The notes beneath the pieces were generated by a model. It worked only from the letters and a program-made list of their open reading frames with translations, did not search any database and was not told where the DNA came from. Positions 812 through 34,470 of a stretch of 64,000 bases of DNA are shown piece by piece. The stretch's first letter is position 1; each line of letters begins with the position of its first letter. Made by a program: the position numbers and the translations under genes. The DNA is taken from positions 88,722-152,721 of the forward strand of contig JANWYG010000008.1 in the NCBI GenBank assembly GCA_025057015.1, read 5' to 3'. This stretch comes from Blastocatellia bacterium (GTDB taxonomy: Bacteria > Acidobacteriota > Blastocatellia > Chloracidobacteriales > JADJPF01).

Positions 812-1192
812 CTACTGCTGATCGAGTACTGGTACAGGGCGGCGGTTTTCATCTACTGCCACGTACACCACTTCAGCTTCGGTAACTTCTACTCGCTCGT
901 AGGCGCCTACAAGTCGTTCAGCTTCTACGTTGACTTTGACAGTAATCGAAGTACGCCCTATCTTCTTCGTTTCGGTATAAAAGCTTACTATGTCGCCTAC
1001 GAACACCGGTTTATGGAAGATGACTTCGCGCATCGCCACTGTGACTATTCGGTGGCGGGTGTGTTTTTGAGCTTCGATGCCGCCAGCAAGGTCAATATAG
1101 CTAAGTAGCACACCGCCGAAGATAGTGCCGAAGGCGTTTGTATCTCTCGGCATCATTGCAACGCGGATCGAGGGATTGCGGAAATTGGTCAA
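812..1192 (-). CDS. acyl-CoA thioesterase, YciA-like hotdog fold
   Basis: 126 aa. [26 protein letters not shown] and [18 protein letters not shown] align with the YciA/Acot family. Start lies 2 nt after the upstream AAA gene stop. Confidence 0.8.
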
Positions 1193-1194
1193 TT

Positions 1195-2973
1195 TTACCT
1201 CACATATGGACGTAGTTGTTCTATTCTTGCTGCTAATTCGGCAGCAGACATGTTTTTGTATGCTTCGGGCAACATTTCTTTTGAAGTTGATTCTCGCACA
1301 GCCACAAGAGTCTGATATTCTACGGCGGTTTCATCTCTTGCAGGGGTAAATTCTGAAGCGACGCTGTTAAGATCTTCTTGAGTGACTACTTTGCGGCCTG
1401 CGTTTCTGGCGACGCGTCTGCATCTGATGAGTATAGATTCTATGTCTGCGCCGGATAATCCTTGTGAGTTTTTAGTGATCGGTGTCCAGTCACTGATGGT
1501 ATGTTCTATCTTGTTTTTCTTTATCATAGCCTCAGTTATAGCTAGTCGATCTTCTTCAGTTTCTGGGTAGAAGAGCGAGATATGCTCTTCGCATCGGCCT
1601 TGCCTCTTCAAATCTATTGGAAGTAAGTCTGGTCGGCAGGTCATCAAGATCCAGAGAATCCTGCCTCGGTTTTCAGTATTGCCCATGGCATTGGCTATCT
1701 TTGAGAAGATCCGGGCGTCTACGCCACTATCACCGCCACCCGTATCGCGAGTTCCTAGTGTGGCGTCGGCTTCATCTATCAGCACTACTATAGGGGCTAA
1801 GGTTGTTAGCAGATTGAGGATCTTTTCGAGGTTAGCTTCGGTAGAGCCAACCCATTTTTCTCGGAAATTTTTGAACTCTATTACGTTCAGACCGCAATCT
1901 TTGGCAAAACATTCGGCTAAAAATGTCTTCCCTGTGCCGACAGGACCAGAGATCAGAATTCCCATTGGGGCTTCTTCGGTTATACCTTCTCGTATAATCT
2001 TAGCTATATTGCTTAGCATTTCCTTTGCCTTAGTCATTCCTCCCACGTGTTCTAGACCATACTTCGGAGTAACGAACTCTACTAGACCGACACACTCTCC
2101 CTCGATTATTTCCTTTTTCTTGTTACGGACTATCTCGTATGTCAGGCCTTCACGACTAGCTGAGGCACTGCGGATCATGGACTGGATATGTAGTCTGTTC
2201 AAGCCGGAGGACATGTGAGCTAGTTGCTCTTCGTTCATCTCGAAGTTGATGGCCGGATTCGTAGCTCTGAAGTAACGGATGTAGTTGAGTCGCTCGTTGA
2301 AGTCGGGGTAAGTAACTTCTATCTTAACGAGTCGGGGATTATCGCGTAATCGCGGGTTTATGTCGGAGACGTTTTCTGTGATAAAAATTATGAGGTTGTT
2401 TGCAGGTTTATCTTGAGTGGTAGTGATCCATTTCTGGAAAGTTACAAGGAGGTTTCTATCCTCACTTGACATATAGGCTACTTCGGTAGCGGGCATTATC
2501 GATTCTAGGAAGTTGATGACTATGGCACAATCGCCGAGCATATCTTGTTCGGACTTGTCATTTCTCCATTGTTCGTAGAAGAAGTATTCTAGGTAAGGTA
2601 TAGCTCTGCTGGGATCACGCGGCAAGACCGGGGGGAGAGTTTGTTGCTTTCGCTGTAGCGGATCGAGCACGCGTTGGTCGGCAACGAAAGCTCGTTCGAG
2701 TTCGAACAATAGTTCTTTCTTGCTCGGTTGTATGCCGTTACTACGATTATAAAGAAGGAAGTTTCTATCTTTTAGTAAATAACCTAAGAATGCTACGAGG
2801 TTGACATAACTGTTTTTGAGCCAGACATAGTCGTAGATGTTGTTGTATAGTAAAAAGCGGCTAGCTTCACCTGAATTGTACTTTTTAACAAGTTTAGCTG
2901 CCCAAGTGGGTAGCTGTCGAATTTCGTCCTCATTTCCGCCAAGCAACTTCTTGCGTTCTGCGAAGTTCATCAT
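1195..2973 (-). CDS. classical (SRH-type) AAA ATPase with a ~320-aa non-catalytic N-terminal region
   Basis: 592 aa. Walker [13 protein letters not shown] and Walker B VVLIDEAD are present. [22 protein letters not shown] resembles the FtsH/Cdc48/Vps4 second region of homology. No P-loop in the first ~320 aa. Confidence 0.85.
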
Positions 2974-2986
2974 CGCGAGCTCCTGA

Positions 2987-3811
2987 TTAACTAGCAGTTT
3001 GTCGGTATTGCCGATTAAGAGTAGGGTTACTTAGCTCTTTATCCATCGAGTTTAGTTTACCGATCATTGGGGAGGTTTCTTCGAGAATAGCTTTGGTGAA
3101 CTCTATGCTGGAGAGAAGGGACTCGAAGTCTAGCGAGGAGATATTTTCAGGAGTGGGCATAGTAACGACTTGATCATTTACTAATCCGAAGAAGTTTTCT
3201 ATTGACTGCAGTTGAGCTTCTACGTGTTTGATACTTTTTTCTATGTCGTCAAAAGTTTTCAAGCGCTGGCGCAGTATATCGAGATTGCGTTCAAGCAATT
3301 GGCGAGTAGTGTTGTCGCTTGATAGAAGCTGGCGTTCAATCTGCATTATCTGATTTTGGACTACTTGTCTGTTTATGCTGCGTAAGTGGTTTTTGCGTCT
3401 GCGGTACATGTCAAGAAGATCCACGAAGGCTTCCCACATAGTTTGCAAGTTAGACTCTATCTGTGGGGGCACATCTTTTGAGTTAGTAAATTTCTTGTAA
3501 TTCGAGCAGATCTGGCCGCGTAGCCAGCGCAGATACTCTACCGCTTCGCGCTCGCGAGGGTCGAACGTCTTTATCAGCTCTTGTCGTTGTAGCTCCCGTT
3601 GCTCGCGTAGTCTGTTGCGTTCGCGATTTTCCACGATACGCCTGTAAAATGAAGTTGTAGGTACTATGGCGAGGTATCCTACTTCTATTGCTGCTGCTAG
3701 TGCTAGAGGCGTGAGGTCTTGCATGTAGACCCCTACAGCTGTAAAAGCTACCATCGACCAGATGTTGATAGGCTCTTTCAGGGCCTCTTTGATGTAGTTG
3801 AACCTCTTCAT
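2987..3811 (-). CDS. membrane-anchored coiled-coil protein, family unknown
   Basis: 274 aa. Hydrophobic N-terminal segments (INIWSMVAFTAVGVY, LALAAAIEVGYLAIVP) are followed by a long charged helical region. It sits 7 nt after pspA and 13 nt before the AAA gene. Confidence 0.6.
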   Translation of the reverse strand: MKRFNYIKEALKEPINIWSMVAFTAVGVYMQDLTPLALAAAIEVGYLAIVPTTSFYRRIVENRERNRLREQRELQRQELIKTFDPREREAVEYLRWLRGQICSNYKKFTNSKDVPPQIESNLQTMWEAFVDLLDMYRRRKNHLRSINRQVVQNQIMQIERQLLSSDNTTRQLLERNLDILRQRLKTFDDIEKSIKHVEAQLQSIENFFGLVNDQVVTMPTPENISSLDFESLLSSIEFTKAILEETSPMIGKLNSMDKELSNPTLNRQYRQTAS

Positions 3812-3818
3812 ATCAGGT

Positions 3819-4544
3819 TTATTCTAAAGCTTTTGCGCGTTGTGGTGGAGCAAGCTGGCTTTCACTTAGACCGGGATCACTTATCAATCCCATTTGTCGT
3901 TTGTATGCTAGCAGTTGGTCTTGAGCTTGCATGTTGAGAGCCTCTTTTTCTATCTCCTGCATTTGTGCGTCGACGCTAGAGCTTGCCAGCTCCATCTTGG
4001 CACGGGCACGAGCTTCGCGTTCGGCTATCTTGTTGCGCATGTCTTCAAAAGTGCTTGCTGTATCGCCGACTTGGAAAGAGGTCATCATGCTGGCTATTTC
4101 TTCTTGCATCTTAGCGCGCTTACTTTCGTTAATCAATTGCATCGCTTCAGCCTGCCGGCGTCTCATCTCTAGCATGTAGTTATCGCGAAACTTGAGTGCT
4201 TGTTGGGAAGCTTTTTTGGCAACTTCAAGCTGCTCGCGAGCAGAATTTAGGGAGGCTTGTTTCTCTTGCATTATGGTTATATAGCTTGTAGCTATGTCAT
4301 CTCGTCCCATCTTGATAGCGGCCTTAATCTTGCTATCGAGGTCAACTACCTCGCGTTCAAGCTGCAAGACCTGCTTTTCTATCATCTTCTCTGTGGCCAT
4401 AACTTGCGCTACGTTATTGTTCATTTGTGGTATCTTGTCGCGCATGTCCCGAATGACCTGTTGCAAGATTAGCTCTGGATCCTCTGCCCTATCTACTATG
4501 CCGCCGAAAATAGACCTAAACAAGCGTTTAACCCTTTCCCACAT
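3819..4544 (-). CDS. pspA: PspA/IM30 family protein (phage shock protein A-like, ESCRT-III superfamily)
   Basis: 241 aa, all-helical. The N-terminus MWERVKRLFRSIFGGIVDRAEDPELILQQVIRDMRD parallels E. coli PspA (...[21 protein letters not shown]). GAGGAGG RBS lies 4-5 nt upstream. Confidence 0.85.
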   Translation of the reverse strand: MWERVKRLFRSIFGGIVDRAEDPELILQQVIRDMRDKIPQMNNNVAQVMATEKMIEKQVLQLEREVVDLDSKIKAAIKMGRDDIATSYITIMQEKQASLNSAREQLEVAKKASQQALKFRDNYMLEMRRRQAEAMQLINESKRAKMQEEIASMMTSFQVGDTASTFEDMRNKIAEREARARAKMELASSSVDAQMQEIEKEALNMQAQDQLLAYKRQMGLISDPGLSESQLAPPQRAKALE

Positions 4545-4569
4545 TATTCCTCCTCGATAGGCGAAATAG

Positions 4570-4575
4570 ATTATA
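4570..4575 (-). promoter_or_regulatory. candidate -10 box (TATAAT) for the pspA operon
   Basis: The minus strand reads TATAAT about 25 nt upstream of the pspA ATG. No convincing -35 box and no sigma-54 -24/-12 element in 4545-4622. Confidence 0.3.
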
Positions 4576-4622
4576 AGTCTAACATATAGAACTGGTCGAA
4601 ACTACTGAATTGTTGTATAAGA

Positions 4623-5894
4623 TTACCTTATTTCAGCTATGTCTTTTCTATAGTGCTTGCCTGGAAAGTCTATGGTACTTACTGCTTTATACGCCAGCTT
4701 TCTGGCTTCCTCGAGGGCTCTGTGCCTTGCTGTAACTGCAAGGACACGTCCTGCGGAAGTGACGTATCTGTTTTTTTCATCTAGCTTCGTGCCTGCATGA
4801 AAGATTCTAACTCCGTCTAGCTTTGTTGCTTCCTCTAGCCCTGAAATAATGTCCCCTGTGCGCGGCGTACCTGGATACCCTTCGGCGGCCATGACGACGC
4901 ACACAGTTGAGTCGCTGCTCCAGCAAGGCCTCACGGATTTAAGATCCTCATTCACTATAGCTTCTAGGATCTCCAGTAGGTCACTTTCTAGCCTCATCAG
5001 CACGGCTTGTGCTTCGGGGTCACCTAACCGGACGTTATACTCAAGCACGCGAGGACCTTCATCAGTGAGCATCAATCCTATGAAGAGCACTCCTCGGAAA
5101 GGTCTGCCTTCATCGGCCATGCCGGCAATTGTAGGCTCGGCTATTTTACTTATTATCTGCTCTAGGAGCTTGTCGGGTAGCATTCCTGCGGCAGAGTATG
5201 CTCCCATGCCGCCTGTATTTGGCCCTCTATTACCTTCGTAAGCTGCTTTATAGTCTTGAGCTAATGGCATAGGTAGGATGTCTTTGCCATCGCTGAAGAC
5301 TAGTAGTGATGCTTCTTGGCCTGAAAGATACTCTTCTATTACCAGCCTAGTACCTGCTGAGCCTAGACTTTTATCAATCATAAATCTTCGTATTGTAGCG
5401 AATGCTTCCTCGGCATCCTGAGCTATAACCACTCCTTTGCCAGCAGCAAGGCCATCAGCCTTTAGCACTACGGGGAAGCGGTATACTCCAGAGGAGATAA
5501 TGTCGAAGGCTGACTCGGGAGTCTCACAATAAGTGAAGTCCGCAGTAGGGATATGGTGTCTGGCCATGAATTCCTTTGCGAAGATCTTGCTTCCTTCTAG
5601 TTGTGCGGCGGCTTTTGTAGGACCTACTATACGGCGCTTACGGCGGCTGAAGGCATCTACTATCCCTGCTACGAGTGGGGCTTCAGGGCCTACTACCGTT
5701 AGGTCTATCTCTTCTTTGTCGGCAATTTCTGCTAGCTGGAGAGGATTTGAGGCGTCGACGTTAAGCAGAGTTGCTTGCTGAGCTATGCCGGCGTTTCCAG
5801 GGCTACAGTAGACTTTTGTTACGTTAGGGCTGGTTGCTAGCTTCCACACCAGGGCGTGTTCTCTTGCCCCTGAACCTATAACCAAGACTTTCAT
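4623..5894 (-). CDS. purD: phosphoribosylamine--glycine ligase
   Basis: 423 aa. MKVLVIGSGAREHALVWKL..., ATP-grasp core, full-length PurD architecture. Confidence 0.95.
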   Translation of the reverse strand: MKVLVIGSGAREHALVWKLATSPNVTKVYCSPGNAGIAQQATLLNVDASNPLQLAEIADKEEIDLTVVGPEAPLVAGIVDAFSRRKRRIVGPTKAAAQLEGSKIFAKEFMARHHIPTADFTYCETPESAFDIISSGVYRFPVVLKADGLAAGKGVVIAQDAEEAFATIRRFMIDKSLGSAGTRLVIEEYLSGQEASLLVFSDGKDILPMPLAQDYKAAYEGNRGPNTGGMGAYSAAGMLPDKLLEQIISKIAEPTIAGMADEGRPFRGVLFIGLMLTDEGPRVLEYNVRLGDPEAQAVLMRLESDLLEILEAIVNEDLKSVRPCWSSDSTVCVVMAAEGYPGTPRTGDIISGLEEATKLDGVRIFHAGTKLDEKNRYVTSAGRVLAVTARHRALEEARKLAYKAVSTIDFPGKHYRKDIAEIR

Positions 5895-5928
5895 AAAACC
5901 TCCCTGATACCGACTGGACGGCCCCTAG

Positions 5929-6813
5929 TTAAAGCTTCATAGGTACAGGGTTTTGAGGATCGGTATAGTCATAGAAGCCACGCCCGGTCTTTCGCCCATG
6001 CATTCCGGCTAGTACCATTCTTTTTAGCAGAGGCGGTGGAGCGAAGCGTTGTTCGCGAAACTCTTCAAACATTATTTCTGCTATGTAGTAGGTAGTATCT
6101 AGTCCGACAAAGTCCAGTAGCGTAAATGGGCCCATAGGATGCCCACATCCGAGCATCATACCGTTGTCTATATCTACAATTGATCCTACTCCTTCTTCGA
6201 GCGCACGTATTGCGTCAAGCAGATATGGTACCAGTAGCCGGTTTACTATGAATCCTGTTCTATCGGAAGTTCGTATGACAGTCTTGCCTATCTTGCTGCC
6301 AAAAGCTGCTACTTCGTCAAAGACCCCTTCATCAGTAACTAATGTCCTTACTGCTTCCAGAAGTTTCATAACTGGTACTGGATTGAAGAAATGTAGCCCT
6401 ACGAAGCGCTTCCTGCGTTCGGTGCCTACGGCCATCATCAGTTCAGTGATTGATAGCGAAGAGGTATTTGAAGCAAATATTGTTTCCGGTTTGCAGTAGC
6501 GGTCTAGCTTAGTAAACACTTCCTTCTTGGCATTTTTGTTTTCTATGATTGCTTCGATTATCAGATCGCAGTCGGAGAGTTCTTCAAGAGAAACAGTTCC
6601 TCGCAGGCGTGCCATCGTGGCTGACTTTCCTTCAGCGGAAAGTTTGCCTTTTTCTACAGACTTAGTAAGCGATTTGTCGATCGTGTTGAGCCCTTTGTCA
6701 AGTAGCTCTTGAGACATTTCGCAAACCGTAGTTTCATAGCCGGCTGTAGCACAAACCTGAGCTATGCCTGATCCCATAAGTCCGCAACCTATTACCCCTA
6801 TCTTGCTTATCAT
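5929..6813 (-). CDS. hbd: 3-hydroxyacyl/3-hydroxybutyryl-CoA dehydrogenase
   Basis: KIGVIGCGLMGSGIAQV Rossmann motif plus a 3HCDH C-terminal domain. I prefer the ATG at 6813 (GGAG 8 nt upstream) over the track start 6849, which would overlap the thiolase gene. Confidence 0.85.
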   Translation of the reverse strand: MISKIGVIGCGLMGSGIAQVCATAGYETTVCEMSQELLDKGLNTIDKSLTKSVEKGKLSAEGKSATMARLRGTVSLEELSDCDLIIEAIIENKNAKKEVFTKLDRYCKPETIFASNTSSLSITELMMAVGTERRKRFVGLHFFNPVPVMKLLEAVRTLVTDEGVFDEVAAFGSKIGKTVIRTSDRTGFIVNRLLVPYLLDAIRALEEGVGSIVDIDNGMMLGCGHPMGPFTLLDFVGLDTTYYIAEIMFEEFREQRFAPPPLLKRMVLAGMHGRKTGRGFYDYTDPQNPVPMKL

Positions 6814-6835
6814 ACCGATGTCTCCACATAAAAAG

Positions 6836-8020
6836 TTAAAGCGATTCAATTATTATGGCTATACCTTGGCCGCCACCTATGCAGGCAGTGGCAAGGCCAT
6901 AGCGGGCATTTCGCCGCTTGAGTTCATAAAGTAACGTCAGTATAAGACGAGCGCCAGATGCTCCCAGAGGGTGACCGAGCGCTATAGCACCGCCGTTGAC
7001 GTTTGTGCGTTCGCGTTCAAGTCCTAGTTCCTTTTCTACAGCTAAGTATTGTGCTGCAAATGCCTCGTTCACCTCGATAAGATCGATCTCGTCTAAGCGT
7101 AGACCAGCTTTTTCGAGCGCTTTTTTCGATGCTGGTACGGGCCCTATGCCCATTATTTGAGGATCAACACCAGCTACTGCCCAGGAGAGTATTCTACCCA
7201 TAGGCCGGTAGCCACGCTCGTCGGCAGTCTTTCTGGACGTGACTATCAGCGCACAGGCACCGTCTACTATTCCTGAAGCATTACCTGCCGTAACAAAACC
7301 GTCTTTTCCAAACGCCGGTTTGAGTTTAGCTAGAGCTTCTAGCGTAGTATCGGGGCGCATGTGGTCATCTTTGGCAAACAGTTCGACGCCTTTTTTGGTT
7401 TTTATCTCTACTGCAGAGATTTCTTCTTGAATACGGCCGCAAGCATAGCCGGCAGCTGCGCGCTGCTGGCTGAGTAGTGCGAACTCGTCTTGTTGTTCGC
7501 GCGTGATGCCGTATCTGCGAGCAAGATTTTCTGCCGTTTGGGCCATGTAATAACCGCAGTAGGAGTCAAACAAGGCTGCCATAAGAAGGTCTTCGAGTTG
7601 AGCATGACCGAGTCTATAGCCGCTTCGCGCTCCTCGCAATACATAAGGAGCTTGTGACATCGATTCCATGCCGCCGGCCAGAACCGTTGAAGCTTCTCCT
7701 AGCAAAATCAGTTGTGCGGCGCTGATGACTGCCTGAATGCCTGACCCGCACAGCCTATTGACCGTAAGTGCTGGTCTGTCAATAGGTATGCCAGCACGTA
7801 GTGCTACATGTCTTGCGCCGTATATAGCGTCTTGTGAAGTTTGAAGTGCGTTGCCGAAGATCGTATGGTCTATATGTTCGGCAGCTACGGAAGTTCTTTC
7901 TAAGGCTGCCCTTGCAGCCAACGCGCCTAGTTCGTTTGCGGTAAAGTCCTTGAACGCGCCGTTATACTCGGCCATAGGGGTTCTTGCACCGCCTATAAGT
8001 AGTACCTCTTTTTCCGGCAT
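6836..8020 (-). CDS. acetyl-CoA C-acetyltransferase / 3-ketoacyl-CoA thiolase (thiolase II)
   Basis: Active-site context [11 protein letters not shown]-terminal [17 protein letters not shown] and CIGGGQG. The [11 protein letters not shown] start at 8020 has a GGAG RBS. The track alternative is 8047. Confidence 0.9.
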
Positions 8021-8100
8021 AGCATGAGCTCCGATTTGGTTTTGCAATTCAAACTTATCAAAACAGTACGAATACGGTCAACCACGCAACCGCAGGGCTA

Positions 8101-34075: not shown

Positions 34076-34101
34076 GGTAAGGCGTATAGGTAAGGCGTAT
34101 A
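34076..34101. repeat. 13-nt perfect tandem duplication (GGTAAGGCGTATA x2)
   Basis: Read directly: 34076-34088 is identical to 34089-34101. It lies 15-40 nt beyond the tmRNA 3' end. Confidence 0.9.
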
Positions 34102-34115
34102 GGATGGGTCATTGA

Positions 34116-34470
34116 TGGAGGTGAAGGGAATCGAACCCTTGTCCGAAAGTCTTCAGCGTCGGAGTCTACATACATAGCCGCTTCCTTTGAAAGCAGCCTT
34201 GGGCGGAGTGGAAGCGGCAAGCACCGCACCGCAGCTCACCCTCGACGCTCTTCGCCGCTTTGCCTGAGGGTATGGCTTAACGGCTAGCCTGCTTTAGTGC
34301 CGCCTTTAACAGTTCCGCAGGCAGGAGCTGTTAAAGACGCTAGCTGCAACTACGCAGCCAGTGCCAACTGCTCAGTGTCTGCAGTTATTTTTTCCATGCA
34401 GTTTACGGGTTACATGGTTCCCGGTATGCATCCGTACGCCTCACTACTCCCGTCGAAACCTAGCACCCCC
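34116..34470 (-). ncRNA. ssrA: tmRNA (SsrA), one-piece
   Basis: 5' GGGGGUGCUAGGUUUCGACGGGAGU and 3' GGACAAGGGUUCGAUUCCCUUCACCUCCA. The 7-bp acceptor stem has a G3:U70 alanine identity pair. T-arm AAGGG-UUCGAUU-CCCUU. CCA is not encoded. Confidence 0.9.
34350..34382 (-). other. tmRNA tag reading frame, predicted tag (A)ADTEQLALAA
   Basis: GCA GAC ACU GAG CAG UUG GCA CUG GCU GCG UAG follows an AAAAAAUAACU leader. The C-terminal LAA is the canonical degron ending. Confidence 0.7.

Follow-up and report, generated by a model that had tools for sequence, protein, structure and literature searches.

The bacterial proteins PspA and Vipp1 now count as members of ESCRT-III, and the energy source for the recycling or remodeling of their polymers is treated as open in the literature. 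A 2025 review states that a Vps4-like ATPase "appears absent in bacteria," and structural papers on PspA/Vipp1 invoke unidentified chaperones for disassembly or turnover. The question of whether bacteria nevertheless encode such an enzyme is raised by a minus-strand operon of a soil acidobacterium, a Blastocatellia bacterium (contig JANWYG010000008.1 of GenBank assembly GCA_025057015.1, positions 88,722 to 152,721; this whole stretch of 64,000 nucleotides [nt] is termed the window), in which a pspA gene is followed by the genes of a 274-amino-acid (aa) protein, called TMcc here, a 592-aa AAA ATPase, and a thioesterase. The original prediction, made from the DNA letters, had read this locus as possibly encoding a polymer, a membrane anchor, and a recycling ATPase of the Vps4 class. 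In our analysis, the gene module and the analogy with ESCRT-III/Vps4 held, but the Vps4-class label, the place of the thioesterase in the module, and the novelty of the association did not. The compact and widespread module composed of PspA, TMcc, and the ATPase offers a concrete candidate for the ESCRT-III/Vps4 counterpart that is considered missing from bacteria.

Linkage of pspA, TMcc, and the ATPase gene

We sampled gene linkage from the side of the ATPase in 80 loci from reference genomes, one per species, which were scored with purpose-built hidden Markov models. Among 67 informative genomes, 47 had pspA and the TMcc gene upstream of the ATPase gene, and another 2 had only pspA there. 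The arrangement with both genes upstream, on the same strand, was present at 40/44 informative loci of Blastocatellia, 4/5 loci of the Bryobacterales type, and both loci (2/2) from unclassified metagenome-assembled genomes (MAGs), and at none of the 13 loci of a Myxococcota-like clade, the ATPases of which have 36 to 37% identity. Sericytochromatia contributed 1 locus with both genes and 2 loci (L055:7265-9677 and L075:7241-9677) where pspA directly precedes the ATPase gene and no TMcc gene is present. Since L055 and L075 pair PspA and the ATPase without TMcc, the latter is dispensable in some lineages; at the Sericytochromatia locus L052, TMcc is shortened to 198 aa.

We then looked at the linkage from the side of TMcc, using a subfamily that is ∼25% identical to the TMcc of the window (79 metagenome loci). 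PspA was encoded upstream on the same strand in 36/38 informative loci, and an ATPase of the same family was encoded downstream in 21 of the 25 loci with at least 5 kb of sequence (E value of about 1e-84 with the profile of D1, the first AAA domain of the ATPase), despite interposed unrelated genes. In this subfamily, the TMcc gene is adjacent to pspA and is located 2.4 to 6.8 kb from the ATPase gene. The three proteins of these lineages have diverged in parallel from those of the window, with identities of 36 to 39% for PspA, about 25 to 26% for TMcc, and about 38 to 41% for the ATPase.

Evaluation of the genetic architecture revealed several gene orders. The window has the order PspA-TMcc-AAA, and in many Blastocatellia PspA and TMcc are separated from the AAA ATPase by a TonB_C protein. 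In Bryobacterales (L057:2966-9758; also L058, L065, and L071), the order is PspA, a 601-aa OmpA-domain protein, a permease, an ABC ATPase, TMcc, and the AAA ATPase, and the TMcc protein belongs to the TMcc family of the window (E value of 3e-89). In the soil-metagenome subfamily, PspA, a protein resembling periplasmic binding proteins (PBPs), and TMcc come first, followed either by an ABC transporter or by a methyltransferase with an enoyl-CoA hydratase, and the cluster ends with a Ser/Thr kinase and the AAA ATPase. Since the three components persist while the order of the genes around them is reshuffled, we propose that selection acts on their co-expression. The linkage holds from both sampling directions, and it establishes PspA, TMcc, and the ATPase as a conserved gene module across deep lineages.

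Several of the genes inserted in the cluster were looked at individually. A secreted TonB_C protein of ∼350 aa, which the window does not have, is encoded between TMcc and the ATPase at L024:6742-7797, L035:6737-7774, and L084:6915-8009, and this insertion suggests an envelope-spanning link of the module. Locus L106:5076-14042 (L095, L110, L117, L128, and L165 are similar) encodes PspA, an NMT1/PBP-like protein, TMcc, an O-methyltransferase, an enoyl-CoA hydratase, a Ser/Thr kinase with a PEGA domain, and the AAA ATPase. The kinase gene is immediately upstream of the ATPase gene in the inspected soil-metagenome loci, a hint of phospho-regulation.

Domain architecture of the ATPase

The classical AAA module that had been predicted at the C-terminal end of the ATPase was recovered with its Walker motifs and its second region of homology (SRH). 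This domain, D2, contains a Walker A motif (GPVGTGKT, aa 343 to 350), a pore loop (KWVG, aa 373 to 376), a Walker B motif (VVLIDE, aa 396 to 401), an SRH at aa 445 with R457 and R460, and a lid motif (SGAD, aa 507 to 510). Walker A, Walker B, the W374-V375-G376 pore loop, R457/R460, and the SGAD lid are invariant in 61 homologs. Walker A and B, an aromatic pore loop 1, sensor 1, and two arginine fingers place D2 in the classical (SRH) clade of AAA proteins. Its best sequence match is Cdc48/p97 (E value of about 1e-43), with an alignment to Cdc48 D2 that runs through the SRH, and the top matches in the PDB are all Cdc48/p97. By sequence, the ATPase has the full set of motifs expected of an active classical AAA enzyme that threads its substrate.

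The first ∼320 aa had been described as devoid of a P-loop, and a motif scan indeed detected no second P-loop in the ATPase, but the N-terminal half is not featureless. A profile of the N-terminal 300 residues, built from 26 diverse family members, matched the AAA domains (D1 and D2) of Cdc48/p97 with an E value of about 1e-8 (1.3e-8), and the alignment covered the Walker B strand, sensor 1, the SRH, and the lid. An AlphaFold2 model of the ATPase (pLDDT of 84.8) aligned in Foldseek over 580 to 620 columns with p97/Cdc48/Rix7, spanning D1 and D2, with TM-scores up to 0.55 to 0.58. Because its N-terminal half is a degenerate AAA domain by fold and by profile, the ATPase is a tandem enzyme with an inactive D1 and an active D2; a novel non-AAA N-terminal domain, which we also considered, was rejected on the same grounds. 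An hhalign comparison of the N- and C-terminal halves (close homologs, single run) was not significant. D1 is devoid of Walker A and Walker B but has invariant residues N45, D48, and E200, and it is preceded by a helix with the conserved motif LPxWAxxLxxxY (aa 21 to 32). Downstream of D2, the C-terminal extension has the invariant residues F542, P544 to D547, Q554, V557, A558, and E561 and helices at aa 548 to 561 and 577 to 591; by analogy with the C-terminal helix of Vps4/katanin-type enzymes, it might serve in oligomerization.

The assignment to the Vps4 class was not borne out. We found no MIT domain (PF04212) and no Vps4_C domain, the architecture is tandem, and the NCBIfam score for CdvC (55 bits) is lower than those for CDC48 (97 bits), PAN (92 bits), and FtsH (78 bits). 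The Foldseek comparison, which the original prediction had proposed for choosing between Vps4, spastin, and Cdc48, placed the model with the D1-D2 proteins Cdc48/p97/Rix7. Since all scores are far under the curated cutoffs (650 for CdvC and 803 for CDC48, TIGR01243), the ATPase is not an ortholog of any named family. The CDC48_N domain gave no match in the ATPase, which has just ∼35 aa ahead of D1. Two other assignments were rejected. A bacterial enhancer-binding protein (bEBP) of the PspF type is contradicted by the lack of a match to Sigma54_activat or to a helix-turn-helix (HTH) domain, with RtcR reaching an E value of merely 0.017. As for an anti-phage system of the IetAS/IteA type, the match to IetA (E value of 7e-15) has the strength of a generic AAA match, the other three proteins have no PADLOC match, and IteA scores 49 bits against 510.

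PspA and its C-terminal tail

We then analyzed the sequences of the two other proteins of the module. The first gene had been identified as pspA, and its product matches the PspA_IM30 family over nearly the full length of the profile (positions 3 to 216 of 220; E value of 1.1e-27; 97.6 bits for a cutoff of 33.9). Residues 1 to 18 form an N-terminal amphipathic helix with the highest hydrophobic moment of the protein (0.67), and the alignment shows conservation of an N-terminal MWxRxKRLFRSIFG motif. The scores are far under the NCBIfam equivalog cutoffs (52 bits versus 243 for TIGR02977, which represents E. coli PspA, and 17 versus 380 for LiaH), and we therefore consider the protein a member of the family and not an ortholog of the model proteins.

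Module-linked PspAs end with the canonical L.(Y/F)K..MG helix, followed by a variable tail of ∼31 aa rich in Pro, Ala, Gly, and Ser. A motif, E(K/R)T(L/I)G, was found in the tails of 74/77 module-linked PspAs, against 1.4 expected in shuffled tails (only linked PspAs were counted), and it forms the very C terminus of the Sericytochromatia proteins. A threading unfoldase or an adaptor could recognize a linear motif of this kind in a disordered tail, which makes the motif a lead for the recruitment of the ATPase.

TMcc

The AlphaFold2 model of TMcc is all-helical (pLDDT of 83) and agrees with the earlier description of a hydrophobic N terminus followed by a long helical region. Two moderately hydrophobic helices (aa ∼15 to 30, or 14 to 30 in the model, and aa 34 to 52) are separated by a three-residue loop. 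Because both flanks are positively charged, we predict a hairpin with N-in/C-in topology; the Kyte-Doolittle maximum of 1.78 corresponds to borderline hydrophobicity, and membrane insertion is a prediction. Glu43 is invariant in close homologs and at least 90% conserved across the diverse family. Buried in the predicted hairpin, this residue might sense the proton motive force or bind lipid. The predicted cytoplasmic part (aa 54 to 274) includes a conserved segment at aa 176 to 222 (NL.IL..RL...QL..IE....DQ..TM.P).

The TMcc family comprises 783 clusters at 50% identity (E value of ≤1e-3). TMcc falls outside the Pfam and NCBIfam families, Pfam scans of 43 close and 72 diverse members returned neither Snf7 nor PspA, and the family profile retrieved nothing relevant from the PDB. 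Foldseek returned generic coiled coils alone (E value of ≥0.07). Two relationships had been raised for TMcc, with XpaC/TelA and with ESCRT-III. The first is not supported, as profile scans that included the 43 and 72 family members gave no match to TelA, XpaC, PspB, PspC, LiaI, or LiaF. Similarity to ESCRT-III was not detected by hhalign, in which TMcc compared with PspA and Snf7 scored no better than reversed controls, in a low-powered test where the PspA-versus-Snf7 positive control also failed.

Relationship to described systems

The original prediction had allowed that surveys of PspA neighborhoods might already list this association, and this is the case. Ravi, Anantharaman, Aravind, and Gennaro (mSystems 2024, PMC11237479, Text S2.2 and Table S3) listed a neighborhood made of PspA and an "Inactive-Classical-AAA+Classical-AAA" protein, with or without a "SIG+TM+Snf7" protein, and they proposed an ATP-dependent membrane remodeling comparable to that by Snf7/Vps4, which is the same analogy. 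Longer operons in their survey add an ABC ATPase, a permease, and a PBPB+OmpA protein; the context in Handelsmanbacteria reads PspA, PBPB+OmpA, permease, ABC ATPase, TM-Snf7, and inactive-AAA+AAA, and Clostridium has PspA-ATPase pairs without a TMcc-type protein.

The window has what defines this class, namely a pspA gene and a gene for an ATPase with an inactive N-terminal and an active-type C-terminal AAA domain in one operon. The order in Handelsmanbacteria is, gene for gene, that of the Bryobacterales orthologs of the window proteins, and because of this match we tie the family of the window to the published class. TMcc takes the slot of the "SIG+TM+Snf7" protein (the position of OGG56892.1), a tie made by gene order. 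The window differs from the published examples in its compact PspA-TMcc-AAA arrangement without a transporter and in the additional thioesterase, and the Snf7 assignment of the TM protein was not reproduced for TMcc. The window is thus a fresh instance of a published, uncharacterized neighborhood class, and neither the association nor the remodeling idea is new. Beyond the 2024 survey, our analysis adds linkage statistics in two directions, the dead p97-like D1, the motif in the PspA tail, and a map of the unlinked clades. As the original prediction had assumed, our literature searches found no experimental study of the system, nor did they find experimental work on a PspA-associated ATPase of the Cdc48, Ycf46, or unfoldase type. 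Reviews and primary papers published later than the survey continue to describe a bacterial Vps4 equivalent as absent or unknown.

Compared with ESCRT-III/Vps4 (CdvB/CdvC), the module likewise has the gene of an ESCRT-III-superfamily polymer beside that of a classical-clade SRH AAA protein with an aromatic pore loop, and module-linked PspAs also have a disordered C-terminal tail with a short conserved motif. However, the ATPase of the window carries D1 and D2 in tandem where Vps4 has one cassette, it is devoid of the MIT, Vps4_C, and β-domains, and the linkage of pspA with the ATPase is not universal. The E(K/R)T(L/I)G motif does not fit the consensus of MIT-interacting motifs (MIMs). By analogy, the system may work like ESCRT-III/Vps4, yet it is not a member, as it lacks the features of Vps4 sequence and architecture that we tested.

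The ATPase is closer to Cdc48/p97/VAT and Rix7, which match it best in the sequence of D2 and in the fold of the two domains together, but it is devoid of the double-psi-barrel N domain, and its D1 has lost Walker A and Walker B. A noncatalytic D1 paired with an active D2 is found in the Pex1/Pex6 unfoldase, which has the same layout as the ATPase of the window. The Psp and Lia systems (PspFABC and LiaIH) resemble the module in having a PspA family effector, a small membrane partner encoded alongside, and, in the case of Psp, an AAA+ protein. They differ in that PspF is a bEBP transcription factor whereas our ATPase has no HTH or sigma-54 module, and TMcc is unlike PspB, PspC, LiaI, and LiaF, with no profile match. 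In Chlamydomonas, the HSP70B-CDJ2-CGE1 chaperone carries out the ATP-dependent assembly and disassembly of VIPP1 oligomers, but it belongs to the Hsp70 class and the genes are unlinked.

Possible functions of the module

We propose, with conviction and doubt in about equal parts, that the locus is a PspA-based membrane-maintenance module in which the ATPase extracts, recycles, or remodels the PspA polymer. In this scheme, every contact between the proteins is inferred, and so are the ATPase substrate and the direction of the effect on the polymer. PspA would polymerize on the cytoplasmic face of the stressed inner membrane via its N-terminal amphipathic helix. TMcc, held by its short hydrophobic hairpin, would present a cytoplasmic helical bundle and act as an adaptor, a nucleator, or a sensor for PspA and the ATPase, whose activity it would localize or gate. 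The ATPase would form a hexamer composed of a noncatalytic D1 scaffold ring and an active D2 ring and would thread PspA subunits through the KWVG pore, possibly starting from their disordered C-terminal tail. This threading would disassemble, recycle, or remodel the PspA polymer, an outcome analogous to that of Vps4 on ESCRT-III, reached by an enzyme of Cdc48/Pex1-6-like architecture that is devoid of MIT/MIM recognition. A more specific proposal, which we put forward tentatively and would sooner doubt than accept, is a bacterial ESCRT-III-plus-ATPase machine in which a Cdc48-like unfoldase, recruited by the hairpin adaptor and by the E(K/R)T(L/I)G motif of the PspA tail, disassembles or remodels PspA polymers. 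Such a machine would either have arrived at the Vps4 solution on its own or descend as a relic from the Cdc48-like state that Makarova et al. (2024) propose as the origin of archaeal Vps4. With three proteins, two of them soluble, and good AlphaFold models, reconstitution in vitro is possible.

Several observations weigh against a dedicated role on PspA. Orthologs of the Myxococcota-like clade are full-length, yet neither pspA nor the TMcc gene was found within 8 kb of them (0/13). Four Blastocatellia genomes, including the two closest relatives of the window, carry the ATPase gene unlinked to pspA, and the ATPase gene of the cultured Chloracidobacterium aggregatum is located beside tdk and ispF with no pspA nearby. 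The linkage to pspA is real but not universal. Linked and unlinked clades do not differ in the conservation of the LPxWA helix and D1, and because this conservation is independent of linkage, no PspA-specific recognition domain is visible. The tail of the window PspA aligns with the motif tails but bears a degenerate copy, SESQL. Finally, according to published work, Hsp70 chaperones can also act on PspA/Vipp1 polymers, or the polymers can manage by hydrolyzing nucleotides themselves.

Part of this evidence would also be expected if the ATPase were a general housekeeping unfoldase or chaperone that is co-regulated in the pspA operon of some lineages without any direct interaction, an explanation that we consider improbable. 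It is favored by the existence of a whole unlinked clade of full-length orthologs, with apparent rplU and obg genes downstream in at least two loci, by the Chloracidobacterium gene context, and by an N-terminal region that is conserved whatever the linkage. Yet the three-gene association outlasts extensive rearrangement across deep lineages when sampled from either direction, co-regulation alone rarely keeps a specific partner over about 60% sequence divergence, and genes for PspA and TMcc may be present at other places in the unlinked genomes. The position of TMcc raises another possibility, also unlikely in our judgment, that the substrates of the ATPase are TMcc or other damaged membrane proteins, which would make it a quality-control or extraction unfoldase like Cdc48, Msp1, or FtsH, and that PspA is merely co-induced to seal the membrane. 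TMcc is encoded immediately before the ATPase in the window, in the Bryobacterales-type loci, where pspA is 4 kb further upstream, and at L052; p97/Cdc48, to which the ATPase is structurally closest, pull proteins out of membranes and complexes; and genes linked to the envelope (TonB_C, OmpA, and ABC transporter) are inserted in the cluster. The PspA-ATPase pairs without TMcc in Sericytochromatia (L055 and L075) and in Clostridium (Ravi et al., PMC11237479) argue against it, as does the distant subfamily, where the TMcc gene adjoins pspA and is kilobases away from the ATPase gene.

The relationship could also be reversed, with PspA regulating the ATPase as it does PspF and the ATPase becoming an effector on an unnamed target once membrane damage titrates PspA. 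In E. coli, PspA is established to bind and inhibit the AAA+ domain of PspF, and the operon contains no other obvious regulator. We consider this explanation highly improbable, since the ATPase lacks any domain for DNA binding or for interaction with sigma-54, is of the classical SRH clade and not of the bEBP clade, and has no candidate target encoded nearby besides TMcc. If the proposed recycling of PspA by the ATPase fails, the locus would still be an example of a stress operon with a recruited general unfoldase.

In a neighbor-joining tree, the unlinked loci correspond to one large clade and to sporadic losses inside Blastocatellia. Among these losses are the two closest reference relatives of the window. 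At their loci, L001 (7983-10174) and L002 (4007-6192), where the ATPase is 79 to 80% identical to that of the window, the ATPase-thioesterase pair is kept and pspA and the TMcc gene are not nearby. Because these two loci keep just this pair, we conclude that the operon was split or assembled recently in this lineage. In the Myxococcota-like loci L069:7986-11559 and L077:7983-11477, the ATPase gene is just upstream of apparent rplU and obg genes, as judged from N-terminal sequences, a context of the housekeeping type.

Features of the locus and its surroundings

The positions of the features are compiled in Table 1. The four open reading frames were recovered with the coordinates of the original prediction and with intergenic gaps of 7, 13, and 2 nt, and so were the ribosome-binding site (RBS) and the TATAAT box announced before the first gene. 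The count of promoter-like sites in the region does not exceed the expectation from shuffled sequence, and it is its position alone that makes the TCGACC-18-TATAAT site suggestive. We saw no sigma-54 -24/-12 element upstream of pspA upon inspection by eye, and no RNA element in the region reached the Rfam gathering thresholds.

Table 1. Coordinates of the operon and of its features in the window
Feature	Position	Strand	Basis or remark
Sigma-70-like promoter candidate, TCGACC-18 nt-TATAAT	4570..4599	-	10/12 positions matched; in the 78-nt purD/pspA gap
RBS, GAGGAGG	4549..4555	-	Read from sequence; 5 nt before the pspA ATG
pspA, 241 aa, PspA/IM30 family	3819..4544	-	Pfam PF04012
PspA C-terminal tail, aa 217-241, ISDPGLSESQLAPPQRAKALE	3822..3896	-	Beyond the end of the PspA_IM30 domain; alignment
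TMcc, 274 aa, all-helical, without Pfam family	2987..3811	-	AlphaFold2 model and family search
TMcc predicted hydrophobic helical hairpin, aa 15-52	3656..3769	-	Kyte-Doolittle, flanking charges, model helices
TMcc Glu43 codon	3683-3685	-	Within the second hydrophobic helix
Tandem AAA ATPase, 592 aa, type II architecture	1195..2973	-	Degenerate D1, active D2, conserved C-terminal extension
ATPase D1, aa ~36-295, degenerate AAA domain	2089..2868	-	Domain profile, fold alignment
ATPase D2, aa ~296-540, classical AAA cassette with intact motifs	1354..2088	-	PF00004, E value of 8.6e-28
ATPase C-terminal helical extension, aa 541-592	1198..1353	-	Invariant residues, model helices
Hotdog-fold acyl-CoA thioesterase, YciA-like, 126 aa, TTG start	812..1192	-	PF03061

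The thioesterase, which the original prediction had included in the operon, is a YciA-like 4HBT protein (PF03061 E value of 1.4e-16; 89 bits with PRK10694 for a cutoff of 162). It adjoins the ATPase gene in 2/80 loci only (L001 and L002), and we therefore rejected it as a core component of the module. It is probably a co-transcribed, lineage-specific passenger.

Independent assemblies of the same organism carry an identical operon, and the best matches of the ATPase and TMcc are from MAGs of Blastocatellia (Acidobacteriota). In the window, purD is directly upstream of pspA (4623-8047 region) and is itself preceded by genes for 3-hydroxyacyl-CoA dehydrogenase and thiolase. As purD is also nearby in L084 (1620-2906), a relative with 54% identity, the local synteny is conserved. 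Genes of acyl-CoA metabolism recur around the module (dehydrogenase, thiolase, and thioesterase in the window and enoyl-CoA hydratase in L106), possibly by coincidence. The remainder of the window looks like ordinary chromosome, with purD, hbd, and thiolase genes (read from their translations), two tRNAs, and a tmRNA. The tmRNA gene (34116-34470, minus strand) encodes the tag ADTEQLALAA, and a perfect 13-bp tandem repeat with 2.2 copies (34076-34103) is located 13 nt from it.

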